A DNA stretch of 64,000 bases from a virus. Lineage: Duplodnaviria > Heunggongvirae > Uroviricota > Caudoviricetes. The translations under genes and the position numbers were made by a program. The notes under the pieces were generated by a model, which was given only the letters and a program-made list of their open reading frames with translations, made no database searches and had not been told where the DNA came from. Below, one piece after another: positions 1-17,566 of the stretch. Numbering within the stretch: the stretch's first letter is position 1; every line of letters starts with the position of its first letter. Where the stretch lies: IMG/VR virus record IMGVR_UViG_3300044712_000123; one strand, 5' to 3'.

Positions 1-2
1 GC

Positions 3-332
3 AATGCTGACGAGGCACGTAAAGCCCGTGAGCTAGATGCCTCATGGAAAGAACTTCAAAAGAAGTGGGACGTTGAAGCCGAAGACAAAAAGCGCAAACG
101 TGCTTTGGCTGCACAACCTTTGACCTACAATCTGTCAACACCAGTCGGTCGCTCGACCTCCAATCACATTCCTTCACGCAATACAGGTGAGGCAGGTACA
201 AGTACGTACAAAGCAAGCCCTCAATACACTGGTACTAAAATCAAAGGTATCGGTACGATGCACAAGTCAAATGCTGTGCCTGTATTCAGTGATGAGGAAG
301 CGCAAGATATCGCAAGGATGCGCCGTGGCTGA
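3..332 (+). CDS. 3' end of a gene that begins upstream of the window; hypothetical protein, Lys/Glu-rich then Ser/Thr-rich
   Basis: Open frame from the window edge to a stop at 332; no start codon inside the window. Confidence 0.4.
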   Translation, partial: NADEARKARELDASWKELQKKWDVEAEDKKRKRALAAQPLTYNLSTPVGRSTSNHIPSRNTGEAGTSTYKASPQYTGTKIKGIGTMHKSNAVPVFSDEEAQDIARMRRG

Positions 333-408
333 TGTTTACTTTGAAATAGCAGATGCCGCTATCTCGAAATTCGGGAGAAAGTATTTTGTTTCACATGAGG
401 TAGATAAT

Positions 409-576
409 ATGCCTTGGCAAACAAGGCGCGTTTCGTACCTACAATATAGTGAACGAGCATGGATGGAACAAGACGATAAAGTTTGGTTTATAAAAAATCG
501 TCATTTACCCAGTCCAACAGTTGACCTGAAAGAATTCATGTGGGTAAAACTTAGTGCGGAGACTGTTCGTGGTTGA
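409..576 (+). CDS. small hypothetical protein with a C-terminal KEFMWVKL motif (paralog A)
   Basis: ATG at 409 preceded by GAGG; the longer frame from 187 overlaps the upstream gene, so the internal start is preferred. It shares the DKVW and FMWVKL motifs with the 554..838 ORF. Confidence 0.3.
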   Translation: MPWQTRRVSYLQYSERAWMEQDDKVWFIKNRHLPSPTVDLKEFMWVKLSAETVRG

Positions 577-838
577 TTATAACTATTATTGTGAAGTCAC
601 ATATGACCGTGCTGATATCAAGCCGGGCATATATAGTTTTAGTTCGCAAAAGAATAGTCGTATAGGATACAATAGATTGATTACCCTTAGCGACAAAGTT
701 TGGCGACAAGGTCCTAAAGGTGGCGTAAAGATTATCAAAGACAGAGGTGCAACATATCACCCTGCTGGATATGTTACTACAGACGAGAAACTAATGAAGA
801 AATTCATGTGGGTCAAACTTCAGGCCCAATCATATTAA
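554..838 (+). CDS. small hypothetical protein with a C-terminal KKFMWVKL motif (paralog B)
   Basis: ORF on the track. It shares a 20-nt near-identical block (aattcatgtgggtNaaactt) with the 3' end of 409..576. Confidence 0.3.
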   Translation: MRRLFVVDYNYYCEVTYDRADIKPGIYSFSSQKNSRIGYNRLITLSDKVWRQGPKGGVKIIKDRGATYHPAGYVTTDEKLMKKFMWVKLQAQSY

Positions 839-1368
839 AGGAGTGTGATATGAACACGCAAGAATGGTTAGACAAAATTACATCAGACAAAGATAAATTG
901 ACTCATTGGCTTGAACGTCAGTTTATCGGTGAGATTACTGCGGCTAAGCGAATTCGCAAACTAGCTGACGAGGCTCCTGAAAAATTTAAACCCGTACTCA
1001 ATCGCATTGCCGATGATGAAGCACTACATGCATTCTGGGTCGGAGAGTTGCTCGTTGCTCGTAATATTCAGATTCCGTTAATCGAACATCCAGAAGATCG
1101 CTACTGGAAGCCTATTCTCAGCGAACTAGATACATTTGAAAAGACTGCGGCAGCAGGCCATCACGCCGAAGGTATGAGACTGGTTCGTATTCGTGCGTTA
1201 GCAGATTCAGACAAAGTGGATAATGATATCCGTGAAGTATTTCGTAAGATTCTACCAGACGAAGAATTCCACGAAGTAGCGTTTGTCAAAATGTCAAACG
1301 AGGAAGCAGTCAAGTATATGCAAGACAAGCATGAAGCTGGTCTTGAAATGCTTGGTCTAGAGATTTAA
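808..1368 (+). CDS. ferritin-like diiron-carboxylate protein
   Basis: Two ExxH motifs about 100 aa apart (DDEALHAF and DEEFHEVAF) plus HHAEG; an AGGAG ribosome-binding site lies before the ATG. Confidence 0.45.
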   Translation: MGQTSGPIILKECDMNTQEWLDKITSDKDKLTHWLERQFIGEITAAKRIRKLADEAPEKFKPVLNRIADDEALHAFWVGELLVARNIQIPLIEHPEDRYWKPILSELDTFEKTAAAGHHAEGMRLVRIRALADSDKVDNDIREVFRKILPDEEFHEVAFVKMSNEEAVKYMQDKHEAGLEMLGLEI

Positions 1369-2120
1369 TGACCAACCACTTCACTAACACTGACGGCTTT
1401 GTTGGATATAGTCCCGAATTCAGAGATGAACTATTCTTTCACGGCAAGGATAGTGAAGTAAACTTCGAAGCCAACAAAAAGAAACTAGGTGATAGTTGGT
1501 ACTATACCAACAACCAAATTACGTACAAAAGAAACAGTCTAGGTCATAGGTCAGGTGAGATACAAGACTTGAACCTAGACAATTATATTATTTGTACCGG
1601 CTGTAGTTTAACCGAAGGCATTGGAGTCGAAGTAGAAAATCGATACAGTAACCTATTACAAAAAGACTTAAACGTAGATGTTTACAACATGGGAGTTGCT
1701 AGTTCGGGAAACGATGTTATCGTTCTTAATCTATTAACTTGGTTAGCAAGAGTAGAAAAGAAACCCAAGTTCATTGTTATCCAATGGACTGATATACATA
1801 GATTCATGACTGATGACGTTCAACTAAAGGGATTGTGGTTGAACACTGAACCAGCAATAGAACAATTTTTTGGATCAGGTGATGAAATCAATTACTTCCT
1901 GAGCAAGTCTAAATACTTGAGAGGTCTATTGAAGACCGTAGTAAATACCCCTATCATTGAAATCCCCTGGTCGTCTAAATTTCCAAACACTGGAAGTCAA
2001 GCAGACACCATCTTACCTAAGACTAATTATTCAGACTACGGAAGAGATTTTATGCATCCGGGGATTGTCACACATCGGCGTTGGGCTGATATGATTGTCG
2101 AAAAAGCAAAACATTTTTAA
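1368..2120 (+). CDS. SGNH/GDSL-family hydrolase, paralog 1
   Basis: Block I TGCSLTEG (GDS-like, Ser retained), block III SGNDV (GxND) and block V DFMH (DxxH). The start overlaps the upstream stop as ATGA. Confidence 0.55.
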
Positions 2121-2139
2121 AAGGAAAAGCAAACCCAAA

Positions 2140-2355
2140 ATGGCTAAAGAAGAAGGTATCAAGATGGATGGTAAGGTAATCGATGTATTACCCAATGCTG
2201 TCTTTAGAGTCACATTAAACGCCGGTCAAACAGTGACTGGTTATATCTCTGGTAAAATGCGCAAGCATGATATCAAGATTCTGTTAGGTGACGTAGTAGA
2301 GATTGAATTCAGTCCATATGACCTGACTAAAGGACGAATCACAAGGCGCAGATAA
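2140..2355 (+). CDS. infA: translation initiation factor IF-1
   Basis: [26 protein letters not shown]...[24 protein letters not shown] is roughly 60% identical by eye to E. coli IF-1. ATG 2140 with an AAGGAAAAG ribosome-binding site is preferred over the TTG at 2095 used on the ORF track. Confidence 0.85.
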
Positions 2356-2978
2356 TGCAGTTTTATGATAAGTTATTAGGCCATGATCCAGACCCTCAAT
2401 TCAATTCAAGAGGGCATCGTTCTAAAGAGATAGAAGAATTGAACCTGCACAATTACATATTATTTGTAGGTGACAATGTAGCTCTTGGGTTAGACAAACC
2501 TGTAGAAGAAACATTCCCTCATATTGTTAGTACAAAAATGAATGTTGACTATTACAACCTGTCTATCTTCAACGGTGGTCTAGACGCAATACGTTACAAT
2601 CTTCTAACTTGGAATCGTATTCAACCAATGAAACCCAGATTGATAATTGTGGCTTCTGAGTTTTTGAATTCATTCATTGTCAGTGACCCAAGTTACTCAT
2701 TTTGGTCAGCATGTGATTGTAATGATAGTAAAGTTATCGAGTTATTTGATGCAGGTAATCATAACGCATTCTTCACAACACGCCAATTATTGGCCGACAA
2801 ATTACTTCGAAACTCAATCAATACACCAATGTACCAAGTTGTGTTGAAAGACAAAATTCCATTGTTTGCAGACTATCCCAACAATATTATACATGATGGT
2901 GATTTAAAAGATCATGCATCGATAGCTGACCAGATAGTCAACAAATTTCAGAAACACACGAGGGCAGCTAGACCATGA
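2355..2978 (+). CDS. SGNH-like hydrolase paralog 2, with degenerate catalytic motifs
   Basis: Homologous to paralogs 1 and 3 (GHRSKEIEELNL.NYI). Block I is VGDNV, with Ser replaced by Asn, and block III is NGGLD. The start overlaps the infA stop. Confidence 0.5.
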   Translation: MQFYDKLLGHDPDPQFNSRGHRSKEIEELNLHNYILFVGDNVALGLDKPVEETFPHIVSTKMNVDYYNLSIFNGGLDAIRYNLLTWNRIQPMKPRLIIVASEFLNSFIVSDPSYSFWSACDCNDSKVIELFDAGNHNAFFTTRQLLADKLLRNSINTPMYQVVLKDKIPLFADYPNNIIHDGDLKDHASIADQIVNKFQKHTRAARP

Positions 2979-3715
2979 AATTCTATGACGACTTTATTGG
3001 TAATGGCGAAGAAAATGTAGTACTACCATTCACAGGCGGTGATTCCGAAAGACAGTTTTTAGAGAACCAAAAGAGAGTCCGCAAAGATTGGTATTACTTT
3101 GACCATCCTATTTCGTATTCCTACAATGAATATGGACATCGTTCTAAGAATATAAAAGACATTGACTTAGACAACTATGTAATTTTTACAGGATGTAGTC
3201 ACACTGTAGGAGTAGGGTTAGAATTAGAAAAAACGTTCCCCTACTTAGTTTCTCAAAAACTAGGGGTCGATTACTATAATATTGCTATGGCAGCAACTGG
3301 TATCGATGTTCTTGAATACAACTTGCTGACTTGGTTTGCAAAAGTAAAGAAGAAGCCTAAGTATGTATTTATCCAGTGGCCAGATCATAGTAGATTTGCA
3401 TCTTATCGAAAAGACTATGACTTGATGCACGAGGTTGGTAGCTGGTCTACTGATGTACATGATCGCAATTTGATGATTAACGGGGAAGACACTGGGTTAT
3501 TCTATGCTCGAAAAGAACTAGCCAGAAGACTGATAACTCAAACAGTAGACGCGCCCATTCACAGCTATGATTACGGTGGTCAACAACCCTACGGCACCTG
3601 GAATCACAAGCTACGTCACATTGATTGGGCTAGAGATTTATCACACACTGGCATAAAATCACATGCAAAATTTACTGATTTGTTGTGTGAGCACATTCAA
3701 TCGATAAATAGCTGA
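2975..3715 (+). CDS. SGNH/GDSL-family hydrolase, paralog 3
   Basis: TGCSHTVG (block I), TGIDV (block III) and DLSH (DxxH). Overlaps paralog 2 by 4 nt. Confidence 0.55.
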   Translation: MKFYDDFIGNGEENVVLPFTGGDSERQFLENQKRVRKDWYYFDHPISYSYNEYGHRSKNIKDIDLDNYVIFTGCSHTVGVGLELEKTFPYLVSQKLGVDYYNIAMAATGIDVLEYNLLTWFAKVKKKPKYVFIQWPDHSRFASYRKDYDLMHEVGSWSTDVHDRNLMINGEDTGLFYARKELARRLITQTVDAPIHSYDYGGQQPYGTWNHKLRHIDWARDLSHTGIKSHAKFTDLLCEHIQSINS

Positions 3716-4041
3716 TGTTAAGTATAACCGAATCAGCAAAAATCAAGATCGCCGATGTGTTGGCAGAAGAGAATAATCCTGCCATGCGCCTGCGAATGTA
3801 CATTCAGGGTGGAGGATGTTCAGGAATGAGTTATGGATTCACCCTTGATGACCAGAATAACGAAGACGATTTCGAAGTTCCTGCAGGTGATACTACTGTA
3901 TTAATCGATAGCATGAGTATGCAATATGTTGAAAATGCTACAATTGACTTTATCGATGACCTGCAGGGTTCTCGATTCAGCATCACTAATCCACAAGCAC
4001 AAACAACATGCGGATGCGGGAGTTCCTTTAGTCCTTATTGA
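3715..4041 (+). CDS. erpA: A-type iron-sulfur cluster carrier / insertion protein
   Basis: Close to E. coli ErpA/IscA along the whole length (YIQGGGCSGMSYGFTLDD...GSRFSITNPQAQTTCGCGSSF); the three conserved Cys are present. Confidence 0.9.
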   Translation: MLSITESAKIKIADVLAEENNPAMRLRMYIQGGGCSGMSYGFTLDDQNNEDDFEVPAGDTTVLIDSMSMQYVENATIDFIDDLQGSRFSITNPQAQTTCGCGSSFSPY

Positions 4042-4047
4042 TAAATA
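4039..4047 (+). promoter_or_regulatory. TGATAAATA motif, candidate late-type promoter element upstream of the tail-fibre gene
   Basis: Exact TGATAAATA, overlapping the erpA stop and 19 nt before the ATG at 4067. The motif recurs at 14518, 14568, 37598 and 51710. Confidence 0.25.
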
Positions 4048-4066
4048 CATCAATAAGGATTAAATT

Positions 4067-5293
4067 ATGGCGATTTCCGGTCAACAGGTCATTTTAGTTG
4101 GACTACAAAACGAGTCAGCTAACAGTGACTCACTATATGCTGCTTTTAACAAGACAGTAACTAACTTTGCAACATTATTTTCCTGTGCTAGCCCGTACAA
4201 TACTTTTGTGGGCAACTCGGGGATAACAGTAAATACTAGCCCAAGTTCTGGTACAGTGTATATTACTAATACTGGGGTAACCAGTCTGACACCAGGTACG
4301 GGTATTTCATTAAGTAGTAGTAATGGTAATGTTACTATCTCTAGTACCGGTGGCGGCGGAGGTGGAGGTGGTACCGTAACTAGCGTAGGTGTGACAACTG
4401 CGTCATCTAGTAGAATTACAGTTTTAGGTGGACCAATTGTTAGCTCTGGTAATATTCAACTAGATTTGGGTACAACTGGCGTGCTCGCAGGCAGCTATAC
4501 ATATCCTACTATGACAGTAGACTCATATGGTAGAGTGACTAGCATTTCTAGTGCGTCATCGACTGGTACAGTCACTAGTGTAGCAGTTAATCCAGGTACA
4601 GGGATTCAAGTTACAGGTAGTCCAATCACTACTTCAGGTACAATCAATATCACAAACACAGGTGTTACTCGTCTAAATGCCGGAACCGGTATCTCATTGA
4701 GTAGCAGTAACGGTAACATCACGGTATCAACAACGACTACCGGCGGAACTGTTACAAGTGTTGGAGTGTCCAGCACAACGTTAACTGTCTCAAATAGTCC
4801 TATTACAACAACTGGTACGATTACGATTGATTTACCTAGTACAATCAGTGTGTCGGGTAATGTCACTGGGGCAAATATTACGACTGCTGGATTAATTACA
4901 GCTACGGGTAACGTAACCGCAGGTAATTTAATATCACGTGGATCTATTACTTCAAATAATACAGGTGGTGTTGGTTATGCAACCGGAGCAGGTGGCACTG
5001 TAACTCAGATAACATCACGTACAACTGGTGTAACGATAAACAAGATATCTGGGGCAATTACTTTAGTATCAGCCGCAGGTACATCATCGTATACTACATT
5101 CACTGTCACAAACAGCACAGTGGCTGCGACTGACGTTATCATTATCAATCAAAAATCAGGTACTGACAAGTACGAGGCGTGGATCAGTAATGTGGCTGCT
5201 GGTAGCTTTAACGTCACATTTGCGGATACATCAGGTACAACAACTGAACAACCAGTATTCAACTTTGCTGTAATTAAAGCAGTAGCTGCATAA
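4067..5293 (+). CDS. tail-fibre-like structural protein (Gly/Ser/Thr-rich, with an internal duplication)
   Basis: Repeated ITNTGVT..GTGISLSSSNGN.T.S and GTVTSVGV units, a run of eight Gly, a low-complexity beta-rich composition, and an AAGGA ribosome-binding site. Confidence 0.55.
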   Translation: MAISGQQVILVGLQNESANSDSLYAAFNKTVTNFATLFSCASPYNTFVGNSGITVNTSPSSGTVYITNTGVTSLTPGTGISLSSSNGNVTISSTGGGGGGGGTVTSVGVTTASSSRITVLGGPIVSSGNIQLDLGTTGVLAGSYTYPTMTVDSYGRVTSISSASSTGTVTSVAVNPGTGIQVTGSPITTSGTINITNTGVTRLNAGTGISLSSSNGNITVSTTTTGGTVTSVGVSSTTLTVSNSPITTTGTITIDLPSTISVSGNVTGANITTAGLITATGNVTAGNLISRGSITSNNTGGVGYATGAGGTVTQITSRTTGVTINKISGAITLVSAAGTSSYTTFTVTNSTVAATDVIIINQKSGTDKYEAWISNVAAGSFNVTFADTSGTTTEQPVFNFAVIKAVAA

Positions 5294-5302
5294 GGAAAAC
5301 AA

Positions 5303-6643
5303 ATGGCAAACGCAACAATAAAAATAACACAACTGCCAAGTATCGGTAATGCTCTTGCAGCAAATACTGTTTTACCAGTAGTAAATACTGCAGGAACAGC
5401 AATCACACAGAAAACAACTGTGGGTAATATCGCAAACTTTGCACTTAGTCAAGCTGGTAATACTTTACCTCCGGCATTCTTGTCTACATTAGCATACACA
5501 GTAGCAAATGCTGCCCAGCCAAACATTACAAGCGTTGGTACATTGAATATTAATACGTTGCATATCTCTGGTGGTACTAACGGTCAATACTTACAAACAG
5601 ACGGGGCTGGTAATCTATCATGGGCTGTAGGTGGTAGCGGAGGCAACGGATCACCTGGTGGTTCAAATACTCAAGTTCAATTCAATACTAATGGTTTATT
5701 TGGCGCGGATGCCAACTTCACCTATGATTCTACTAGATCGATGCTTACTGTTTCATACCTTACCAGTACACCAAACGCTAACTTGTACGTATCTGCTAGC
5801 AACGGTGGTCCTACGTGGATTTTTGGCATAGGCGGAGCACTAGTATGGCCTGGTTCCGGCGACCATGCTATTGAATCAAACATTGATGAAGAATTTGAGA
5901 TTAGAAGTACCAACAATGTTGTAATCTCAACAGATATTGCTAACTCTAATAATCATTTTACATTTGCGAATGATGGTGTTGTTTATGCACCATCAAACGT
6001 TGTATTGGCAGGGTCAACATTGTTTGTGGGCCCGGGTGCCAATGCAATATCGTTAGTAAACCCAACGATGATTGTGACCAATAGTGCGTCTGATTACGTT
6101 CAATCTGCTATTATTAACTCTGGCAGTGGATCTGCTGACTGGATCGCATATGGCAACGCTGGAACAGATGCAGGGGCCTGGGGAGACATGGGTTTCACTA
6201 GCACTGGGTTTGCCGATGCAAACTACACCATTACAAAACCTGGTGATGGATATTTCTTTGTTCAAGGTTATGCTAATGATACAACCGGCGGTAATCTAGT
6301 TATTGCAACAGGTAATCATGGCAACACCAAAGACATTATCTTTGCTACGGGTGGTTTCTTAGCTGCCAATGAGTTTGCTAGAATTAGTGATTCGAACAAT
6401 GCATTAGAATTATATAACGGTGGAAACATCACCGGAGCAACTAAAATACGATCAACATATAGCCAGACTTCAGGGACTACTATTACGTTGCTCGGTAGTG
6501 CAGCCACTGCTGGAGCAGGAACACGTGCGTTTGTTACCGATGCTAACTTGGTAGCTGCTGGAAACTTCGGTGTAGTAGTATCTGGATCAGGTTCCAATGC
6601 AGTACCAGTGTACTCTGACGGTACGAATTGGCGAATCGGATAA
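5303..6643 (+). CDS. tail-fibre-like structural protein 2
   Basis: Gly/Asn/Thr/Ser-rich 446-aa protein directly downstream of 4067..5293 with an AAGGAAAA ribosome-binding site. A terminator follows. Confidence 0.5.
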   Translation: MANATIKITQLPSIGNALAANTVLPVVNTAGTAITQKTTVGNIANFALSQAGNTLPPAFLSTLAYTVANAAQPNITSVGTLNINTLHISGGTNGQYLQTDGAGNLSWAVGGSGGNGSPGGSNTQVQFNTNGLFGADANFTYDSTRSMLTVSYLTSTPNANLYVSASNGGPTWIFGIGGALVWPGSGDHAIESNIDEEFEIRSTNNVVISTDIANSNNHFTFANDGVVYAPSNVVLAGSTLFVGPGANAISLVNPTMIVTNSASDYVQSAIINSGSGSADWIAYGNAGTDAGAWGDMGFTSTGFADANYTITKPGDGYFFVQGYANDTTGGNLVIATGNHGNTKDIIFATGGFLAANEFARISDSNNALELYNGGNITGATKIRSTYSQTSGTTITLLGSAATAGAGTRAFVTDANLVAAGNFGVVVSGSGSNAVPVYSDGTNWRIG

Positions 6644-6654
6644 TCGAATTCATG

Positions 6655-6690
6655 CAACAAAAAGCCCCTCACTTGGGGCTTTTTTGTTTT
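6655..6690. terminator. bidirectional rho-independent terminator
   Basis: aaaAGCCCCtcacttGGGGCTtttttgtttt: a 6-bp GC stem flanked by an A-run and a T-run. It is shared by the convergent + strand fibre operon and the - strand gene 6669..6905. Confidence 0.75.
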
Positions 6691-6905
6691 CTAACAGTGA
6701 CCTTCATTTGTGACAACATATAGTCCGTATACTTGAAGTAGCACATTGCGGGCACTTCGATAAACGGATCTTCTACATAGAAGGGACAACCATTCTTCCA
6801 TTTGCCGTTATCTTTGAAATACTTCAACTCAAGTAAGTCTTCTTTGCTAGAAGGATCAAACTCACGGCGTGGATTAAAAGATCGGCGAAATGTTTTGAGG
6901 TTCAT
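6669..6905 (-). CDS. hypothetical protein
   Basis: ORF on the track; its stop lies in the loop of the terminator hairpin. Confidence 0.4.
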   Translation of the reverse strand: MNLKTFRRSFNPRREFDPSSKEDLLELKYFKDNGKWKNGCPFYVEDPFIEVPAMCYFKYTDYMLSQMKVTVRKQKSPK

Positions 6906-6906
6906 G

Positions 6907-7098
6907 TTATTCTCGTGGAATTACAGTTGCGGCTTCTTTGATAACTGCATAAACATCATCCAATGTTGGACAGACAATTTTTGCAGTCTTCCAGTCGTCA
7001 TCAGAGTCACGACCTGACACTTCAACCATGTACCCATTGTCGTACATATTGATGGTCAAGCTGTCACCGCACTTTGCTAGTTTGTCTGACAGCTTCAT
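6907..7098 (-). CDS. hypothetical protein
   Basis: ORF on the track, tightly packed with its neighbours. Confidence 0.35.
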   Translation of the reverse strand: MKLSDKLAKCGDSLTINMYDNGYMVEVSGRDSDDDWKTAKIVCPTLDDVYAVIKEAATVIPRE

Positions 7099-7100
7099 GA

Positions 7101-7499
7101 TTATGCTGGATCCACGTTGTGCAAGTCAACTGCATCGAGGATCTGTTCTGCGGTGACTTCTTTGTTTTTCTTACCACGTGCTTTGATAGCATCGAGGCTA
7201 GGCTTTTTAGTTGCCTTAACTTTGACAGTGCCCTTGCCTGCTTCTTTCTCCTTGTCTGCAAGAGAATCAGCAATTGTTGCCTGATCTGCGGCAGATTGAA
7301 AATCAGCATGGGATGCCAGATACTTGAGAGCTTCGATCTTTGTCATCTCACTCGGCAATTCAATCAGGTCAATGCGAGTGGCACCACCTTTACTGAATTG
7401 TTTGATACGGCGAACCATGTCATCAGTGAAACGAACCTTAGCATTGCCATTGTGAATAGTGATGCCAGCGACCTTGAAAGTTTGAGAAGTATTAGCCAT
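7101..7499 (-). CDS. hypothetical protein
   Basis: ORF with an AAGGAAACAA ribosome-binding site before the ATG. The C-terminal half is Lys/Ala-rich. Confidence 0.45.
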   Translation of the reverse strand: MANTSQTFKVAGITIHNGNAKVRFTDDMVRRIKQFSKGGATRIDLIELPSEMTKIEALKYLASHADFQSAADQATIADSLADKEKEAGKGTVKVKATKKPSLDAIKARGKKNKEVTAEQILDAVDLHNVDPA

Positions 7500-7555
7500 T
7501 TTGTTTCCTTTAAAGATTAGCTAAGTTGATAAAAATGTCTTGCGACATAGTTATA

Positions 7556-7584
7556 ATGATAACACAGGTGTGCTTTAAAGTCAA
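7556..7584 (-). promoter_or_regulatory. sigma70-like promoter (TTGACT, 17-nt spacer, TATCAT) for 7101..7499
   Basis: Reverse complement reads TTGACTttaaagcacacctgtgtTATCAT. The -35 box sits inside a 9-bp inverted repeat (cacaggtgt/acacctgtg). Confidence 0.4.
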
Positions 7585-7607
7585 CACCTGTGTTGCCCAT
7601 TATTCGT

Positions 7608-7763
7608 TAAACCGGGCAAGCCGATTCCGAGATTAGTAGACGACCGTACATACCTCGAGCCATTTGGATAGCTTGGTAAGGATCATTTGCAGTAATGTAC
7701 ATCCGGTCAAACCCTGCACCCGGTTCGTCTTTGTATTTCACGAGGACCCAATATTGATTCATT
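7608..7763 (-). CDS. small hypothetical protein (51 aa)
   Basis: ATG overlaps the upstream stop as ATGA; it is below the ORF-track length cutoff and was read by eye. Confidence 0.3.
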
Positions 7764-7992
7764 TCAAGTTACCTTTCAAAGTAAAGTTTGCCAACACAGA
7801 ACGAGCGAGGGAAAGATCCTCGGCATCGTCAAAAATTTCTGCCATTTTTACTACAGTTTCCGATCGAGCCTGACGAATGATTTCGATTGCGTATTCAACA
7901 TCATCCTGACTGATTGACGAATACCATTCATCAAATTGCTCGGGAGTGAGTGACATGATGAAGTGCAGGTTATTGCGATCCCAATCATTCAT
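7759..7992 (-). CDS. hypothetical protein
   Basis: ORF on the track. Its start overlaps the stop of the EHFGVEE-family gene, inside the conserved 26-nt coupling block. Confidence 0.4.
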   Translation of the reverse strand: MNDWDRNNLHFIMSLTPEQFDEWYSSISQDDVEYAIEIIRQARSETVVKMAEIFDDAEDLSLARSVLANFTLKGNLK

Positions 7993-8300
7993 TCTTCAAC
8001 TCCGAAATGTTCTTTGATATCTGAATCCACAAGGCCGTTGTTAATCTGAGATAAACGACCCACATACATACATTCCCGAACAATTTGTTCTGCAAACTGT
8101 TCCAGCCAGTGCTCAACTACTTTGCCGTCACTGGTATCAGTAAGCGCCTTTACAATCTCTTTGGGATCAACTTTGGCTTGCTTACGTAATTTAGAAATTA
8201 GTTCCTTGTTCATATTAAGCCTCAACAGTGTAGGGTTTGTTCCAAGTACCGATAGACACGTCCACATACCAGCCCACATCGAAGTAGTCAGTTTGGACAT
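7989..8300 (-). CDS. small protein of the paralogous FAE.IV.EC...KEHFGVEE family (copy 1)
   Basis: C-terminal IKEHFGVEE and internal FAEQIVRECMY are shared with 23549..23827 and 45341..45550, and the last 26 nt are identical in all three. The true start may be the internal MNKELISK. Confidence 0.5.
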   Translation of the reverse strand: MSKLTTSMWAGMWTCLSVLGTNPTLLRLNMNKELISKLRKQAKVDPKEIVKALTDTSDGKVVEHWLEQFAEQIVRECMYVGRLSQINNGLVDSDIKEHFGVEE

Positions 8301-8640
8301 CCGAATTATTGTGATTGCCTTTGTTCATAGCAGCCAGTACTTCGTTCAGGAAAGATACAGCCTTACCTGAGAAGTGTTCTTGATACCAGTAAGTATTCAC
8401 ATCCAGAGAACGTTCCTTGCGAACATACGCAATACGGTCATCAGACATTTTGTTACCGTAGGGCTTGTCTGCATCGGTCTTGATATAGTTTTCGATAAAG
8501 TCAATCGAACCACTCTTGATAGTCAAAACAAAAGACATGCTATTGCGCACAGAAAGAGAACCTTTGACACCGTACTTTTTCAGGATAGCTTTGATAGCTG
8601 GAGCACGTTCTTGTTTGCGGTCTTGATTGAAGTAAGCCAT
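8215..8640 (-). CDS. hypothetical protein
   Basis: ORF with an AAAGGA ribosome-binding site; a consensus promoter lies 34 nt upstream. Confidence 0.45.
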   Translation of the reverse strand: MAYFNQDRKQERAPAIKAILKKYGVKGSLSVRNSMSFVLTIKSGSIDFIENYIKTDADKPYGNKMSDDRIAYVRKERSLDVNTYWYQEHFSGKAVSFLNEVLAAMNKGNHNNSDVQTDYFDVGWYVDVSIGTWNKPYTVEA

Positions 8641-8673
8641 TTTCGAGTCCTTTTCTTTACTGTCTAAGATTCT

Positions 8674-8702
8674 ATTATATGCCCAAAACGATTTATTGTC
8701 AA
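8674..8702 (-). promoter_or_regulatory. consensus sigma70 promoter (TTGACA, 17-nt spacer, TATAAT), cassette copy 1
   Basis: Reverse complement reads TTGACAataaatcgttttgggcaTATAAT. The 34-mer is identical to the one at 25652..25680. Confidence 0.7.
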
Positions 8703-8851
8703 GCCTTATTGTAAACCCGACGATGTGAACGATATGCTTCCTTCGTTTCGCTAACAGACCAGCGGAACGCTTGCTTCATCAATTTGTAAGTATTCTTGGT
8801 CAATACCAGGATGAAAAACACGGGTAACAGTGTCAGTTGAATGTAGTACAT
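8699..8851 (-). CDS. small hydrophobic protein (50 aa, one predicted transmembrane helix)
   Basis: MYYIQLTLLPVFFILVLTKN...; an AAAGGAAC ribosome-binding site; lies between two promoter cassettes. Read by eye. Confidence 0.3.
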   Translation of the reverse strand: MYYIQLTLLPVFFILVLTKNTYKLMKQAFRWSVSETKEAYRSHRRVYNKA

Positions 8852-8881
8852 ATCAGTTCCTTTGTTTCAATCTATGCATAG

Positions 8882-8910
8882 ATTATATGCCCAAACTGAT
8901 TTATTGTCAA
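8882..8910 (-). promoter_or_regulatory. consensus sigma70 promoter, cassette copy 2
   Basis: Reverse complement reads TTGACAataaatcagtttgggcaTATAAT. Confidence 0.7.
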
Positions 8911-9027
8911 CCTTTGGCAAAAACGCTAGAACTGTATCAAGATGCATCCCTGCAAAAAGAATTGGTCCTAGCGTTCCTGTGTCATTAAAATGAATACTTT
9001 TTACTACAAAAAAGTAGTACTAACGTA

Positions 9028-9204
9028 TTAACTATTGACCGTATTAAACGGGTTCAATTCATCAAACTGCGAGTCTTGGATTTCTTCCAACACATCGTAC
9101 ACGAAACTGACAGGGCAGTCCAAGACCGCGCTGATAGTAGAAGGGTGATCGCCCTTCTCCAACATCATTTCGATTTCCAAAGAGAGTTCAGACATTTGGC
9201 TCAT
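9028..9204 (-). CDS. small acidic hypothetical protein (58 aa)
   Basis: ORF read by eye; its start overlaps the stop of 9201..9419. Confidence 0.25.
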   Translation of the reverse strand: MSQMSELSLEIEMMLEKGDHPSTISAVLDCPVSFVYDVLEEIQDSQFDELNPFNTVNS

Positions 9205-9419
9205 TTTGTGGCTTTCGAGATAGTGCTACGAAACAGGATACCAAACAAGAAATTGATACCCCATGCTTGCAACCAAGTGACTTCTTTGACACCTTGAATA
9301 GCATCAACCAAGCATCCATTCCACAGCATATAGACAGGCCAACTCAGTAAGAAACTGATTAGCAGTAGACCTGCAAGACCAATGACAATTGCACCAACAG
9401 CAACAACGAGTTTTTCCAT
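9201..9419 (-). CDS. small membrane protein
   Basis: Two hydrophobic helices (VVAVGAIVIGLAGLLLISFLL and INFLFGILF) and an AAAGGAAAAA ribosome-binding site. Confidence 0.4.
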   Translation of the reverse strand: MEKLVVAVGAIVIGLAGLLLISFLLSWPVYMLWNGCLVDAIQGVKEVTWLQAWGINFLFGILFRSTISKATK

Positions 9420-9440
9420 GATTTTTCCTTTGATTAAAAA

Positions 9441-9725
9441 TTAAGCAGCCGACAACATATTAGCAGGAACACGCCAAGTACCGAACGCCTTGCCGTTCTC
9501 ACGAACAATTATGAACTTTCGATTTACCTTTTCAACAGTACCGAGAACAGTCTGACCATTACGGTTAGATGTAAACTTTACCGCTGAACCTGCTCGGAAT
9601 GTAAACTTGGCTTTAGTAGCAAGCTGATTCCGAGCAAACTTAATTGCCATTTGAATACTATCCAACTGTTCATTAGTAAATACACCACTGACGATAGTAG
9701 TATTAATTTGCTGAATCGTTGACAT
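9441..9725 (-). CDS. hypothetical protein
   Basis: ORF with a CAGGAGAAAAC ribosome-binding site; a promoter lies 35 nt upstream. Confidence 0.45.
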   Translation of the reverse strand: MSTIQQINTTIVSGVFTNEQLDSIQMAIKFARNQLATKAKFTFRAGSAVKFTSNRNGQTVLGTVEKVNRKFIIVRENGKAFGTWRVPANMLSAA

Positions 9726-9757
9726 GTTTTCTCCTGTGTTTCAGTGTCAATACAAGT

Positions 9758-9786
9758 ATTGTATCACCGAAACCATTTATTGTCAA
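9758..9786 (-). promoter_or_regulatory. sigma70 promoter (TTGACA, 17-nt spacer, TACAAT)
   Basis: Reverse complement reads TTGACAataaatggtttcggtgaTACAAT. It shares the 'ATAAAT' spacer start with the cassette. Confidence 0.65.
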
Positions 9787-9787
9787 A

Positions 9788-10378
9788 TTACGGACGCTTT
9801 GTTACGATCTGGTCGATCAATCCGTATTCCAGTGCTTGTTGTGCTGACATGAATGTGTCACGATCCATATCCTTCTCAAACTCTGCGTAGGTCTTGCCCT
9901 TTGAGTTGTGCTCGACATAGATTTCGGTTAGTCGCTTTTTCAAGAATGTGATTTCTTTGTAACTGATTTCGATATCAGATTGCATACCACGTGCGCCACC
10001 TGAGGGCTGGTGAATCATGTGTCGTGCATTGGGCAACATGAAACGCTTACCAGGAGCACCAGCTTGCGCTAGCAGAGAACCCATTGAACATGCTTGACCC
10101 ATAACGATGGTATGCACATTTGGTTTGATGAATTGCATGGTATCATAGATCGCCATACCAGCAGTAACACTACCACCTGGCGAGTTGATATACATTGAAA
10201 TGTCTTTTTCGGGATCCTCAGATTCGAGGAATAGTAGTTGGGCAACAATCAAGTTTGCCATTTGGTCATGAACTTCACCTTCTAGCAGAATGACACGATC
10301 ACGTAGCAAACGTGAATAGATATCATAGCTACGCTCACCTTTAGCGGTGTGTTCAATGACGATTGGGACTAGAGACAT
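9788..10378 (-). CDS. clpP: ATP-dependent Clp protease proteolytic subunit
   Basis: Full-length ClpP with Ser-His-Asp triad context ([16 protein letters not shown]) and an AAGGAAG ribosome-binding site. Confidence 0.95.
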
Positions 10379-10404
10379 AAACTTCCTTAAATAGTTGAAC
10401 TGCT

Positions 10405-10433
10405 AGTATAGCAAAAACTATCTAGCAAGTCAA
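10405..10433 (-). promoter_or_regulatory. sigma70 promoter (TTGACT, 17-nt spacer, TATACT) for clpP
   Basis: Reverse complement reads TTGACTtgctagatagtttttgcTATACT. Confidence 0.6.
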
Positions 10434-10447
10434 CTACTTTCGGTCAT

Positions 10448-12019
10448 TTATTTACGTTTGGCTCGAACGCCCGTTTCTTTAGCTTTACGGGTACTGCTTG
10501 GGTTGATGATATCCTTAGCTGCACCAGCTAGACTACGTGTGCCCATACTGTCAGCACCGTCAAGTGCATCCTGAGCTTCACCGTCATCACCATACATGTC
10601 AATATTATCATCATGTTGGGCAGTGTCTGCTAGTTTGAAACTGAAACCACCTTTTGTTGGGTCAGTAGAACCTGACTTAGATTCCAATGTAACCTTACCG
10701 TCCAACTTAGCTGGCCATTGTGTAGTGAACACGATCTTGCCTGCTTTGTATGTTGCATATTGTTGCATGAAGTTCATGTCCAAGATTTCCAACACGCCAC
10801 CTTGATAGTTAGGGATAGCATCACTGTCGTTAACCATATCAACTACAGCCTTCTTGACAAGATACATCAACTTACCACCGTCACTTGATTCACCTTTGAA
10901 TCCCATGTCAGCCCAAAGTGATGCATACTTTCCTGGTAACTTAGATTCTTCTTTGCGGTTAGCTTTGTACATCATTAAACTTTGATCTGCCATCTTCATT
11001 ACTTTATCAGTCCAAGGCAAGAATTGATTGAACTTCTTAGGGATAGCCTTAGGGTTGTATTTGTGAATGATGTTCATACCTCTGAACGGTTGTTCTTTAG
11101 TAGGAGTAGTCTTAGTCATCTCAATAAATTCAACTAAGGCAGCATATTTCTTGTTCTTTCTGATATGATCTGGAATCTTCAAACCAGTCATACTAGGAGG
11201 CGCACCGCCACCTGTTCCCTTACTAGAGATTTTAACAGTGTGTGATGTTGCAGCATTCTTAACTTCGGCGTAGCTATCAGCTAGCTTCTCATTTTGCTTG
11301 CTCGGGAATCGTAGTACTAGATCACCCAATGAACCACCTAGCCATTCTTCGAATTGCTTTCTCTTGGGGAAGCTAGACTGACCATACAACAATGCAAGAA
11401 CACCCAGGTATTCGCCTGCATTATCAACTAGTGCAGTACGCACGGTTTCGTGGCTTTTGTCTCTATAGTCTTCAGGAAGAATAGCACCTTCACCTGCCAT
11501 AATCTGATAAGCAAGTTGAATAGTAACTTTACCATAATCAGTGCTTTCTAGGACTTGGTTGTGTGTAATCATGTCACCGAAGTCTTCTGCATTAATATCT
11601 TGGTCAGTGATCTTAATCTGAGCAGGATTTAATTTGAAAGCAGCTTTACCTTTAGGTTCTTGTTCGCCCTTTTCACTTGGTTCGCCTGTTGCACTACCGG
11701 CAAGTTGTCCACCAAATTCGCTAGTTTTCAACAGACTACCTAACGGGATTACATCACCATCAGTTGTCTTTAACTCGATAGAACCCTTGAACTGAGTGCC
11801 ACCTGGGCTGTTATGTAGTGCTTGAATTCTTTTAGCTTCTCTAGGATCGATGAAGACTTGAACTCCATCCTTGCTTAGAAAAGGCTTGCTTGTAGCAATG
11901 TGTTGGATGAAACTTTCAAAACGACCTGGTCGTTTTAATAGTACACCGGGGCTTAGGGTCTTAGCAGAAGATTCCGAATCTTCGGCAAGAACAGATAATA
12001 GGTCTAATAAATCACGCAT
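10448..12019 (-). CDS. hypothetical 523-aa protein with N-terminal MRDLLDLLSVLAED; candidate propeptide-tagged virion or injected protein
   Basis: No recognisable catalytic motif. Its N-terminus resembles that of the SOD-like gene at 40007 (MRDLIQLLED). Confidence 0.45.
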   Translation of the reverse strand: MRDLLDLLSVLAEDSESSAKTLSPGVLLKRPGRFESFIQHIATSKPFLSKDGVQVFIDPREAKRIQALHNSPGGTQFKGSIELKTTDGDVIPLGSLLKTSEFGGQLAGSATGEPSEKGEQEPKGKAAFKLNPAQIKITDQDINAEDFGDMITHNQVLESTDYGKVTIQLAYQIMAGEGAILPEDYRDKSHETVRTALVDNAGEYLGVLALLYGQSSFPKRKQFEEWLGGSLGDLVLRFPSKQNEKLADSYAEVKNAATSHTVKISSKGTGGGAPPSMTGLKIPDHIRKNKKYAALVEFIEMTKTTPTKEQPFRGMNIIHKYNPKAIPKKFNQFLPWTDKVMKMADQSLMMYKANRKEESKLPGKYASLWADMGFKGESSDGGKLMYLVKKAVVDMVNDSDAIPNYQGGVLEILDMNFMQQYATYKAGKIVFTTQWPAKLDGKVTLESKSGSTDPTKGGFSFKLADTAQHDDNIDMYGDDGEAQDALDGADSMGTRSLAGAAKDIINPSSTRKAKETGVRAKRK

Positions 12020-12038
12020 AGTCTAGTATTTATGCTTT

Positions 12039-12530
12039 TCAGCATTTAAAGATATTTTGATATCTGAGCCAATGCTTTTGTCTATGTGATGTTTTAAGTG
12101 GGATCCCGTATTCTGCTAGTCTATCTCTGAACAAAAAGAAGCTAGGACCATGACTCATTAGTCTATCCTTTCCATCTTGGATTCGTTGTTCACCGATGAT
12201 ATCCCATTGATACTGATGACACATTTCGTGAGCTAATGTAGTGATAAGCCATTGCTTGCAGTACCACTTGTCCATGAGTCGTATTTTACACAGTGACCTA
12301 CGGTAGTGAATCTTTTCGTGCGCACCGTAACAGATTCCCCAGTATTCTCTGCATCTAGGAACTACTTCGAGTATTGGCATAGTCATTACATTGTCAAATA
12401 CATAGTAATTGATTTGTCGATAAAGATTTGAGACCTCATAGTAGTCAGTCCTGTACATCAGTCTTTTTTGATAACTGATGCTAGGCAATGGTGTATCCAT
12501 CATTTCTTCAAGAGAATAGTACTTGGCCAT
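12039..12530 (-). CDS. SprT-like zinc metallopeptidase
   Basis: HEMCH (HExxH) motif in a SprT-like context (TLAHEMCHQYQWD) and several Cys. Confidence 0.5.
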   Translation of the reverse strand: MAKYYSLEEMMDTPLPSISYQKRLMYRTDYYEVSNLYRQINYYVFDNVMTMPILEVVPRCREYWGICYGAHEKIHYRRSLCKIRLMDKWYCKQWLITTLAHEMCHQYQWDIIGEQRIQDGKDRLMSHGPSFFLFRDRLAEYGIPLKTSHRQKHWLRYQNIFKC

Positions 12531-12630
12531 GATAATGATATTTACAAGTTTAGGCTGTGCGTAAGTATGTGTACATTAGAAAAATATCATTGGTTTGTGC
12601 CCACTCTAAATATATGTTTAGGAGACAGAA

Positions 12631-12954
12631 ATGTTTAATTTTATCAAGAGACTATTTGGATTTGGCGAGACACAACAAGCTGAGCCAGTAGCACCCTACA
12701 AAGTAGAGGTTGCCCCTGTTCTAGCACCCGTAGTCGAAGCAAAGCCAGAAGTCAAACCTGCGCCGGAAGTAAAGCCAGAGCCAGTAGTTGCAGCTACACC
12801 AGCGGCAGCTATGACAGCTAAGCCTAAGGCTGCAAAAGCTAAAGCACCTGCAAAAGCAAAGGCTCCGGCAAAAGCTAAAGCACCTGCAAAGGCCCCAGCT
12901 AAGCCCAAGACTGAAAAGCCAGCAACTAAGAAAAATCTTAGAGTCGTAAAATAA
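12631..12954 (+). CDS. Ala/Lys/Pro-rich histone-H1-like basic repeat protein
   Basis: (KAKAPA)n and PEVKP repeats; an AGGAGACAGAA ribosome-binding site. The opposite-strand ORFs 12696..12908 and 12721..13068 are repeat artefacts. Confidence 0.55.
   Translation: MFNFIKRLFGFGETQQAEPVAPYKVEVAPVLAPVVEAKPEVKPAPEVKPEPVVAATPAAAMTAKPKAAKAKAPAKAKAPAKAKAPAKAPAKPKTEKPATKKNLRVVK
12838..12909 (+). repeat. tandem 18-nt coding repeat, about four units
   Basis: gctaaagcacctgcaaaa / gcaaaggctccggcaaaa / gctaaagcacctgcaaag / gccccagctaagcccaag. Confidence 0.6.
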
Positions 12955-12955
12955 G

Positions 12956-13648
12956 ATGCATATAGGTTTTGATGTAATCAGTGATCTTAATCTGTCTCCT
13001 GAAGACAGCTTCAATTGGGAAGGTAAGGCCACTAGCTTGTATTGTGTCATCGCTGGTAATATCAGCAATGACTTGCGAACTGTTAGACAAACGTTATTAC
13101 ACTTGTCTAAGTTATATCAAGGCATCTTTTATATCATCGGAACGTTAGAGTATGAAACAGCTACTGACATACAACAGCGCTCCGATGAAATTTTCAAACT
13201 ATGCGCTACTATCAAAAACGTAGCAGTACTACATCATCATGTAGTCATTATTGATGGCATTGCAGTCGTTGGTGCAAACGGTTGGTATGATGCAAAGCAT
13301 CAACATGCATCTGATTTAGAACTTGAAGGTCACAGACATGAAGACCTCTCATATTTAAAAAGCACACTTGAACGTCTTCAAAGACACTTGGACGTTAAGA
13401 AGATTTTCGTTGTTTCTCATTCTGTTCCAGGACCCGGTTTATACTTCGGTGAAGCTCCTAGTACAACAGAAACACATCTTTCACTAGACCTACTGCTAGG
13501 AGTCGATACTGAAAAGAAGATCACTCACTGGGCGTACGGCACATATGGAAAAGTAGTTGACACCACTATAAATGGCATCAACTACGTTAATAACTCATAC
13601 TACAAACGTAAGCCTTATTGGGCTAAACGTGTAGAAATCTCGATTTAA
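12956..13648 (+). CDS. hypothetical protein, possibly a calcineurin-like phosphoesterase
   Basis: ORF only; weak D/H/GN motifs. It is convergent with clpS and their stops overlap. Confidence 0.35.
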   Translation: MHIGFDVISDLNLSPEDSFNWEGKATSLYCVIAGNISNDLRTVRQTLLHLSKLYQGIFYIIGTLEYETATDIQQRSDEIFKLCATIKNVAVLHHHVVIIDGIAVVGANGWYDAKHQHASDLELEGHRHEDLSYLKSTLERLQRHLDVKKIFVVSHSVPGPGLYFGEAPSTTETHLSLDLLLGVDTEKKITHWAYGTYGKVVDTTINGINYVNNSYYKRKPYWAKRVEISI

Positions 13649-13950
13649 GCCTCTGCTTCTACTCGCACAAGCAATGGGAAGCCCTGATTACGCGCTTCCA
13701 AAGTGACCTCAGTCCCTTTTTGTTCTGCGATCTCGTAGGGCAATACTGCAACTACAGCAGAACCTTCATTATGGATGCTCTCTGTGATATTCATCGCAGT
13801 GTCAGTGTTGTAATTGAAATAGTCGATCAGGCTTCCTACAACAAACTCCATGCTAGTTACATCATCGTTCATGTAAATAATTTTGTACATAGGAGGCTCT
13901 TTAAGAGCAAGATTTGGTTTGATTTTAATTTTTGTTTCAGTTTTAGACAT
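13645..13950 (-). CDS. clpS: ATP-dependent Clp protease adaptor ClpS
   Basis: KEPPMYKIIYMNDDVTSMEFVV...PLL aligns with E. coli ClpS ([22 protein letters not shown]...PLL) across the core domain. Confidence 0.85.
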   Translation of the reverse strand: MSKTETKIKIKPNLALKEPPMYKIIYMNDDVTSMEFVVGSLIDYFNYNTDTAMNITESIHNEGSAVVAVLPYEIAEQKGTEVTLEARNQGFPLLVRVEAEA

Positions 13951-14014
13951 GCGTGATACCTAATTTAGGGTTATGAAAGTGAGTAGCCTTTCGACTACTC
14001 ACACTGCTATTATA

Positions 14015-14458
14015 TTATTTAGTGTAACTGATAGCAATAGTTTTCGGCTTCTTTTCTTCTGGAACTCTACGTTCCAAATACACAGTTAGAATACCGTCAC
14101 GCTGACTAGCGTTTACAACTTCGACATGTTCGGCAAGTGTGAACTCACGGTCAAAGTCTCGGCTGCTAATACCGCGATGTAGGTACTCATTAGATGCATC
14201 CTCGTCCCGAACAATACGACCCTTGATACTTAATAGACGGTTGTCTAAGTTGATCTCCACTTCACCTTCACGGAAGCCAGCAGTAGCAACTTCAATATAG
14301 AAAGTGTCTTCTGTCTGTTTTACGATATTGTAAGGGGGATAGTTTAGGGATTGTTGAGCATTCATTCGTGCAAGTTCGTCAAACATGTTATCGAAACCGA
14401 TACCAAATTTGTGAATTGACGGAATGTCGAGGGAACGAAGGGTTAAAGTTTTTGTCAT
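14015..14458 (-). CDS. ibpA: small heat-shock protein, alpha-crystallin/Hsp20 family
   Basis: YPPYNI, AGF.E.E..I and LERR.PEEKKP match IbpA/IbpB; an AGGAG ribosome-binding site. Confidence 0.9.
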   Translation of the reverse strand: MTKTLTLRSLDIPSIHKFGIGFDNMFDELARMNAQQSLNYPPYNIVKQTEDTFYIEVATAGFREGEVEINLDNRLLSIKGRIVRDEDASNEYLHRGISSRDFDREFTLAEHVEVVNASQRDGILTVYLERRVPEEKKPKTIAISYTK

Positions 14459-14488
14459 GTTTTTCTCCTATAAGCAAGTAATGACTAT

Positions 14489-14512
14489 GTGAGCCCGACA
14501 GTCGGCACTCAC
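14489..14512 (-). promoter_or_regulatory. imperfect inverted repeat in the ibpA 5' UTR
   Basis: gtgagcccgacagtcggcactcac: GUGAG/CUCAC outer stem with CCGAC/GUCGG inner stem. It lies between the TGATAAATA motif and the ribosome-binding site. Confidence 0.35.
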
Positions 14513-14517
14513 AATGA

Positions 14518-14526
14518 TATTTATCA
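14518..14526 (-). promoter_or_regulatory. TGATAAATA motif, candidate promoter element for ibpA
   Basis: Exact 9-mer, 59 nt upstream of the ibpA ATG. Confidence 0.3.
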
Positions 14527-14567
14527 TATCAAATTACGTAAAATATTTAAATATTTTTCGGTTAAAC

Positions 14568-14576
14568 TGATAAATA
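14568..14576 (+). promoter_or_regulatory. TGATAAATA motif, candidate promoter element for the homing endonuclease
   Basis: Exact 9-mer, 62 nt upstream of the ATG at 14639; divergent from the ibpA copy. Confidence 0.3.
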
Positions 14577-14638
14577 AAAGTGTAGTTCGCGGACTTCGTA
14601 CATCCCAACTACTCTAATGCTTACAAGGAGCAATCAGC

Positions 14639-15130: not shown

Positions 15131-15340
15131 CTTCTTAGGAAGACTTTGTTCACGCAAGAATTTCTTCCATCTAGACTTAGCTTTGGATTTCTTTAACTTG
15201 CGTTCAGTGGTAGGCTTAACAAACTGTTGTCTGTCTCTCACTTCTTGGAGAAGATCCATATCGGTTATCTTCTTCTTGAATTTACGTAGGGCTTTCTCTA
15301 CGTTACCATCTGTTACAATTACTCGTCTTCCTTTTTTCAT
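15122..15340 (-). CDS. rpsU: 30S ribosomal protein S21
   Basis: ALRKFKKK...L.EVR.R..F.KPTTERK matches bacterial bS21 (ALRRFKR...LAEVRRREFYEKPTTERK). Its start overlaps the clpX stop as ATGA. Confidence 0.8.
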   Translation of the reverse strand: MKKGRRVIVTDGNVEKALRKFKKKITDMDLLQEVRDRQQFVKPTTERKLKKSKAKSRWKKFLREQSLPKKLF

Positions 15341-16542: not shown

Positions 16543-16577
16543 ATTATACTTATCTTTGTAGCGTTTTTGATTTTATT

Positions 16578-17564: not shown

Positions 17565-17566
17565 GA

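Follow-up and report, generated by a model that had tools for sequence, protein, structure and literature searches.

A stretch of 64,000 nucleotides of viral DNA (IMG/VR record IMGVR_UViG_3300044712_000123; hereafter the window, meaning the whole stretch) encodes a translation initiation factor IF-1 that has probably long been resident in a lineage of jumbo phages. From its conserved contact residues and strong constraint we infer that it acts as a normal IF-1 on the ribosomes of the host, a reading that we hold to be somewhat better than an even bet.

An infA-type IF-1

The sequence-only reading had described a 71-residue open reading frame (ORF) about 60% identical to bacterial IF-1. Both figures hold, with 71 codons plus TAA and 58.6% identity to the Escherichia coli protein:

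2140–2355, + strand: IF-1 (infA) coding sequence, ATG start, 71 codons plus TAA

The infA equivalog model TIGR00008 (NCBIfam) matches this ORF with 104.9 bits (cutoff 61.15; E 1.5e-30), aligning residues 3–70 to model positions 1–68 of 69, and PF01176 (eIF-1a/IF-1; Pfam) matches with 78.9 bits (cutoff 30.2; E 2e-22). The identity to E. coli IF1 extends over 70 residues (tblastn, E 1e-24), and that to Thermus IF1 is 54%. All 12 PDB sequence matches are IF-1, the best being that of P. aeruginosa (2N78; E 8.6e-23). Assignment to a generic cold-shock or S1-domain protein, which had been named as the outcome that would overturn the identification, can be set aside: the two IF-1 models score above their cutoffs, the PDB matches are all IF-1, no CSD or S1 family in Pfam or NCBIfam matched at E ≤ 0.01, and the sole other family match, RsgA_N, lies below its own cutoff. 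The eIF1A/aIF1A model TIGR00523 reaches only 17.5 bits (cutoff 102.9; identity 20–30%), which places the protein with the bacterial type. In PHROGs it is matched by an unannotated family, phrog_30201, at 103 bits.

The AlphaFold (AF2) model (pLDDT 89.6) predicts an OB fold with the order β1–β2–β3–helix–β4–β5 (strands 7–17, 21–26, 31–36, 52–58 and 61–70; helix 38–42). Its best fold match is 30S-bound E. coli IF1 (9fco_I; TM 0.95, r.m.s.d. 0.8 Å), and ranks 1–13 of the fold search are all bacterial IF-1. By family models and predicted fold, the ORF is thus a true infA-type IF-1.

A gene of an uncultivated jumbo-phage lineage

A T4-type family-B DNA polymerase encoded in the window (phrog_262, 646 bits) is closest to those of Sinorhizobium phage Phosso (49%) and Agrobacterium phage Atu_ph07 (46%), followed by XaC1 and RaK2-like phages. 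The window also encodes an ATP-dependent ligase, UvdE and a 5′–3′ exonuclease, alongside many ORFs without a family match; a tRNA/tmRNA scan of the window found none. Megablast of positions 1–20,000 against GenBank phages returned no match, indicating that the GenBank phage collection holds no sequenced close relative. The identical IF-1 protein occurs in public collections, where the longest contig that carries it is 360,240 bp and IMG names the exact protein 'translation initiation factor IF-1', and over 200 stretches of IMG/VR, some of them contigs of 352–359 kb, hold orthologues with 68–94% identity. Judged by these relatives, the window is a jumbo phage from an uncultivated lineage with genomes of roughly 350–360 kb. 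One longer record, IMGVR_UViG_3300027749_002876 (524,565 bp), carries two IF-1 copies (90% and 86% identical to that of the window; loci L097 and L133) about 358 kb apart; rather than being a single 524-kb genome, it probably joins two related genomes, each of about 358 kb, as a chimera or concatemer.

The description of the gene as phage-encoded is borne out by the T4-type polymerase, by orthologues on viral contigs of up to about 360 kb and by its surroundings. Among 80 bacterial infA loci, rpmJ was adjacent in 76, and map was present in 67 and adk in 65. The cellular locus adk–map–infA–rpmJ–rpsM is absent around the phage gene, the neighbours of which are instead SGNH-like, ErpA-like and fibre-like genes, and the window holds no homologue of L36, Map, Adk or S13.

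Of the window genes, 46% have an SD-like motif ahead of their start, compared with a background of 5%. A Bacteroidota host, as in the bS21 phages of Chen 2022, was considered and found unlikely on the basis of these motifs, an ErpA of the proteobacterial equivalog type and nearest cultured relatives that infect Proteobacteria. Given the SD use and the hosts of these relatives, the host is probably not a member of the Bacteroidota.

IF-1 and ErpA form the fixed backbone of the locus

The genes that surround IF-1 are as follows:

1368–2120, + strand: SGNH-like paralog 1, 37% identical to paralog 3 (E 4e-52)
2355–3715, + strand: SGNH-like paralogs 2 (2355–2978) and 3 (2975–3715), cargo between IF-1 and ErpA
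3715–4041, + strand: ErpA-type A-type Fe–S carrier (NF010147 ErpA, 145.9 bits, cutoff 117), conserved syntenic partner of IF-1

Mapping of the window proteins on 88 related viral loci revealed a fixed order: a 94-residue ORF, IF-1, variable cargo of up to about 5.6 kb, the ErpA-like gene and a fibre-like gene. The ErpA-like gene follows IF-1 directly in nine loci and lies 0.23–5.9 kb downstream in most of the related loci; conversely, IF-1 was found upstream in all nine same-clade loci that were anchored on ErpA. The linkage holds even on more distant viral contigs (including contigs of 320 and 337 kb), where an IF-1 of only 50–68% identity lies within a few kb of ErpA. The number of SGNH-like copies varies from zero to three across the related loci. 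These genes lie downstream of IF-1 in all subclades but that of the window (loci L001–L006), and only there is a paralog found upstream, namely paralog 1 together with a rubrerythrin-like gene (808–1368 in the window). In one relative (L007), an Fe-SOD gene takes the place of the SGNH-like cargo. The proposal that IF-1 was inserted among the SGNH paralogs therefore has to be turned around: as IF-1 and the ErpA-like gene are fixed and the SGNH-like genes variable, the paralogs accumulated around IF-1.

That the three flanking ORFs (1368–2120, 2355–2978 and 2975–3715) are true paralogs is upheld by pairwise identities of 37% (E 4e-52) and 29% (E 8e-29); their SGNH label is tentative. Hydrolases of the SGNH/GDSL type are recognised by blocks I, II, III and V, with catalytic Ser, Gly, Asn and His (the last in D-x-x-H), and by a flavodoxin-like fold. 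Pfam gave no SGNH family and only DUF6473, below its cutoff. A profile search against PDB returned one marginal lysophospholipase match (E 0.002) among mostly spurious matches to antibody light chains, and the top fold matches of a low-confidence AF2 model (pLDDT 58) were TesA/GDSL proteins (E 2e-4, TM 0.33–0.47). Copies 1 and 3 have the serine in a G-C-S motif and a D-x-x-H motif, both of which are missing from copy 2. The latter is part of a shorter subfamily, kept in several of the related phages, that lacks about 37 N-terminal residues, has GDN in place of GCS and has lost D-x-x-H; with the putative nucleophile serine and D-x-x-H gone, it is probably catalytically inactive.

Beyond ErpA, two fibre-like Gly/Thr/Ser-rich repeat proteins (4067–5293 and 5303–6643, + strand; repeats such as GTGISLSSSNGNVTIS and GTVTSVGV) end the plus-strand block ahead of a terminator-like hairpin described below. 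Their sole family match is phrog_18251, a family of unknown function.

Strong constraint on a probably old phage gene

IF-1 is the most conserved member of its neighbourhood, with 68–94% identity among orthologues compared with 53–78% for ErpA and 45–72% for the fibre-like gene. Across 56 distinct orthologous coding sequences (1,540 pairs), dN/dS had a median of 0.066 and a 95th percentile of 0.14, with synonymous sites saturated in 849 of the 1,540 pairs. IF-1 is under strong purifying selection, and 26 of its 71 residues are invariant in the phage clade.

We built a neighbour-joining (NJ) tree of the phage clade with 83 bacterial and four other phage IF-1 sequences, the bacterial sample coming from a pattern-seeded scan and hence being biased. 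The phage sequences were monophyletic with a bootstrap of 89/200, a weak value that we attribute to a protein of only 71 residues. The best identity between the clade and a bacterium in this sample was 64.8%, and identity within the clade goes down to 56%. The sisters of the clade are a Patescibacteria MAG, the infA loci of which have a genuine bacterial context, and then Proteobacteria together with Phosso, with too little support for a donor to be named; the Phosso IF-1 and the distant viral IF-1s linked to ErpA adjoin the clade, and the phage proteins are slightly closer to proteobacterial IF-1. The pattern fits an old acquisition, apparently followed by vertical descent within a broad group of jumbo phages. 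The clade shows that a gene of this kind can belong to the ancient core of a phage lineage instead of having been acquired recently from a host.

These data also bear on whether the gene has any function in a phage. Its roughly 60% identity to cellular IF-1 could be taken as a sign of mis-assembled bacterial DNA or of a recently captured, decaying passenger, and some 'phage' records with infA are indeed bacterial: tblastn of IF-1 found 35 GenBank 'phage' records, some of this sort among them, and the top match, 'Acinetobacter phage MD-2021a' (CAKLQH020000005.1, L173), was rejected as a bacterial chromosome in which infA lies among ansA, truA and leuBCD. However, the same gene with the same synteny is present on more than 200 viral contigs, several of them of 350–360 kb; the adk–map–infA–rpmJ context is missing, although rpmJ adjoins 76 of 80 bacterial infA genes; the bacterial sample contains nothing above 65% identity; and dN/dS is 0.07 with dS saturated. 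Synteny and selection together refute this explanation, to which we give practically no credence.

The 30S contact surface is retained

In the Thermus 30S–IF1 structure, K39 and M42 touch the 530 loop and R41 and R46 contact the flipped A1492 and A1493; the β1–β2 loop of IF1 inserts in the groove of helix 44, and H35, Y60, R64 and R66 lie on the S12 side, with R70 critical (PMC10913371). Tested against a list of these contacts (K39, R41, R46, Y60, R/K64, R66, R70 and the β1–β2 loop; PMC10913371, after PDB 1HR0), the phage protein has all of them, as K39, R41, K46, Y60, K64, R66, R70 and L17-P18-N19, K46 being a conservative change. Neither the phage nor the bacterial set shows any variation at R41, Y60, R66 and R70 or in the motifs SG(K/R)MR, GD.V and SPYDL..GRI.

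At four positions the phage clade differs systematically. Position 35 is tyrosine in the clade and in Thermus, compared with histidine in 78% of the bacterial sample; position 44, in the ribosome-contact loop, is aspartate compared with Y/F/M in bacteria; position 46 is lysine compared with mostly arginine in bacteria (lysine in 22% of the sample); and position 69 is arginine compared with Y/F (tyrosine in 83%). Given these differences, the phage protein may not be a simple equivalent of bacterial IF-1.

Purifying selection together with the retained A-site contacts points most likely to a working IF-1 on host ribosomes. During infection, such a factor would bind the A site of the host 30S subunit (helix 44, the 530 loop and the S12 side), would cooperate, like any normal IF-1, with the IF2 and IF3 of the host, and could thereby maintain or raise the supply of IF-1 for phage protein synthesis while host gene expression falls. 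In the literature searched we found no experiments (expression, binding or complementation) on any phage IF-1.

Two other uses of the protein have to be weighed against this surface. For E. coli IF1, complementation of csp mutants has been described, as have activities in RNA chaperoning and antitermination (PMC3017892), and the window contains further stress and proteostasis genes (Hsp20, ClpXP, ClpS and Cpn10), so that the phage might use IF-1 mainly as a CspA-like RNA chaperone or antiterminator, for example in cold waters, and not in initiation. We think this improbable, as conservation is focused on the ribosome contacts (R41, Y60, R66, R70; ISGKMR, SPYDL) just as in cellular IF-1, the top matches are IF-1 and not Csp families, and the chaperone and initiation roles can in any case coexist. 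Even less credible is a dominant-negative IF-1 that holds the A site of the host 30S subunit without cooperating with IF2 and IF3 and so blocks host initiation. The non-conservative, clade-specific changes Y44D, near the contact loop, and Y/F69R, at the C terminus, would suit such a role, yet the phage itself needs these ribosomes and has genes with ordinary SD motifs, purifying selection keeps the canonical IF-1 surface complete, and the literature searched offered no precedent. We rate both uses as less likely than a normal, functioning IF-1.

A conserved, displaced SD motif in the IF-1 leader

IF-1 had been reported to overlap its neighbours by 4 nt on both sides. The junctions prove to be different: the stop codon of the upstream gene (2118–2120) is separated from the IF-1 ATG at 2140 by a 19-nt spacer, and the IF-1 TAA (2353–2355) overlaps the next ATG (2355–2357) by one base, as TAATG. 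The sole 4-nt ATGA overlap nearby is that between paralogs 2 and 3 (2975–2978).

2121–2139, + strand: IF-1 leader, with SD-like AAGGA at 2121–2125 immediately behind the upstream stop codon and separated from the ATG by 14 A-rich nucleotides

The position of this SD motif is unusual. Its first G of GGA lies at −17 in the window, and 38 of 39 distinct orthologous leaders have it between −15 and −21 (median −18 or −19). AAGGA(G) and ATG are 14–16 nt apart across the orthologues, about 9 nt beyond the distance in other genes of the phage. Of 39 other window genes, 33 have the corresponding G between −8 and −12 (Mann–Whitney p = 5e-9), and all 35 orthologues of the fibre-like gene (fib1) at the same loci have it between −9 and −12. 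The displaced motif is kept clade-wide, regardless of the identity of the upstream gene (L007, L089–L168).

In T4 genes 38 and 25, a hairpin bridges a distant SD and the ATG. A bridging hairpin of this kind at the IF-1 leader was rejected, the folding energy being only −1 to −5 kcal/mol per 60 nt in nine orthologues. Rfam gave no match to the whole window at gathering thresholds, nor to positions 1900–2500 at E ≤ 1, which indicates that the leader holds no known cis-regulatory RNA. The leader may be a deliberately weak start site, either termination-coupled or self-limiting; a conserved sub-optimal SD distance argues against simple high-level over-production of IF-1.

A scan of positions 1–7,200 for sigma-70 promoters and terminators gave counts that were not above those in shuffled sequence (18 versus 19.4 and 5 versus 4.3, respectively). 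The only convincing terminator in this region ends a co-directional plus-strand block, about 187–6643, that includes IF-1:

6659–6684, + strand: terminator-like GC hairpin and T tract, 10-bp stem with 5 GC pairs, then TTTTTTGTTTT

IF-1 is paired with bS21, and the window carries proteostasis genes

S21 had also been noted in the window, and its presence is confirmed both there, by a PF01165 match well above the cutoff, and on related contigs that carry IF-1. The gene adjoins clpX and lies close to further proteostasis genes; an SOD-like gene is found elsewhere in the window:

9788–10378, − strand: ClpP (272 bits)
13645–13950, − strand: ClpS
14015–14458, − strand: Hsp20
15122–15340, − strand: ribosomal protein bS21 homologue, 72 residues (PF01165, 51.2 bits, cutoff 27)
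15337–16542, − strand: ClpX-like gene (zinc finger and AAA domain), adjoins bS21
40007–40570: Fe/Mn SOD-like gene

The bS21 homologue, which gives the window a second gene for translation initiation, is 44% identical to E. coli S21 over 57 residues. Its start shares 4 nt with the end of the clpX-like gene, including the stop codon of the latter (ATGA, 15337–15340), and bS21 lies directly downstream of clpX in all 75 related loci with enough flank (L174–L253). ClpP, ClpS, Hsp20 and ClpX lie within about 7 kb around bS21 and, counting a Cpn10/GroES-family protein that is also encoded in the window, make up a full proteostasis set. A 523-residue ORF beside clpP gave no tblastn match to phages. 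With ClpP, ClpX, ClpS, Hsp20, Cpn10, the SOD-like protein and the ErpA-like protein, the phage brings a broad set of housekeeping helpers, and phage IF-1 would act beside phage bS21 and phage ClpXP, ClpS, Hsp20 and GroES.

Other genes of the window include a GTP cyclohydrolase I (50970–51650, − strand; 54.9% identical to E. coli FolE) and an ORF of the 6-pyruvoyl-tetrahydropterin synthase (PTPS, QueD-like) family, which together suggest a pathway for 7-deazaguanine (queuosine- or archaeosine-type) modification. A Pfam sweep of the window also revealed an Hc1 histone-like protein and sugar-nucleotide enzymes.

IF-1 and bS21 occur on one contig, 13–27 kb apart, in at least 20 IMG/VR contigs of the clade. 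This pairing, the clade-specific D44, K46, Y35 and R69 in or beside the ribosome-contact loop, and the selective translation proposed for phage bS21 (PMC9723584; PMC7162821) would be in keeping with a specialised module in which IF-1 and bS21 together make the 30S subunit favour phage over host mRNAs, going beyond a mere increase of the IF-1 pool. We regard such a module as unlikely, though worth keeping in mind. Phage mRNA leaders have no distinguishing feature, the window genes having an ordinary SD at −8 to −12; it is established that IF-1 occupies the A site and reads no mRNA leaders (PMC10913371); and the two genes, separated by 13–27 kb and on opposite strands in the window, are not co-transcribed.

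A more elaborate combination of these features is a long shot. The phage-adapted IF-1 (Y35, D44, K46, R69) and bS21 might constitute a phage-specific module in which IF-1 synthesis limits itself, through a deliberately mis-spaced SD that, at high levels of the factor, would be rejected in proofreading by IF1/IF3. The autoregulation of infC follows a logic resembling that of the proposed self-limiting leader.

Comparison with known phage and cellular factors

The phage IF-1 described here is real but not new in kind, because IF1 genes of huge phages have been published (Al-Shayeb 2020) and IMG annotates the exact protein. The former work lists 'initiation factors IF1 and IF3, as well as ribosomal proteins S4, S1, S21 and L7/L12' (PMC7162821), and further IF1 genes were reported in a preprint on Lak megaphages (10.1101/356790) and in huge phages from glacier-foreland soil (PMC11748809); that such phages act directly on translation initiation, as the sequence-only reading proposed from IF-1 and S21, is a reasonable idea that has likewise been put forward for huge phages (PMC7162821; 10.1101/356790). 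What is added here lies mainly in the corrected synteny, the conservation across the clade and the unusual leader. Phage-borne initiation machinery blurs the line between virus and cell, and suggests that large phages tune host ribosomes. With hundreds of contigs, a deep phage-only IF-1 lineage, strong constraint and the pairing with bS21, the clade provides a clean and abundant natural data set in which function can be tested.

In kind of gene and of genome, the IF1 genes of huge phages correspond to that of the window, and they too are often accompanied by bS21; the window belongs to a different and much larger uncultivated clade. Its IF-1 is 46–59% identical to those of Lak, LR756511 and Phosso, the last of which (PV764938) has an annotated IF-1 with 58.6% identity. 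In Phosso the order is Clp-family ATPase, MutT-like protein and IF-1, whereas in the window clade IF-1 is followed by ErpA; the polymerase relatives Atu_ph07, RaK2 and XaC1 gave no IF-1 match. Phage bS21 (Mizuno 2019, PMC6375957; Chen 2022, PMC9723584) is likewise a small host-derived 30S initiation component of aquatic or large phages, but a ribosomal protein and not a factor. In the Bacteroidetes phages of Chen 2022 (PMC9723584), in which IF1 is not mentioned, bS21 lies among structural genes, whereas here it forms an operon-like pair with clpX and SD motifs are used.

Among cellular proteins, eIF1A and aIF1A share with IF-1 the OB fold and the A-site position on the small subunit, and occupy ranks 14–40 of the fold search. 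Bacterial IF-1 (PDB 1AH9, 1HR0 and 9FCO; identity 52–58%) has the same length of 71 residues and the same S1-like OB fold as the phage protein, with the 30S-contact residues and the motifs LPN, ISGKMR and GD.V.VE.SPYDL.KGRI..R in common. Unlike bacterial IF-1, the phage protein has Y35, D44, K46, R69 and a C-terminal ITRRR, and its gene is set apart from the bacterial one by an SD motif conserved at a displaced position.
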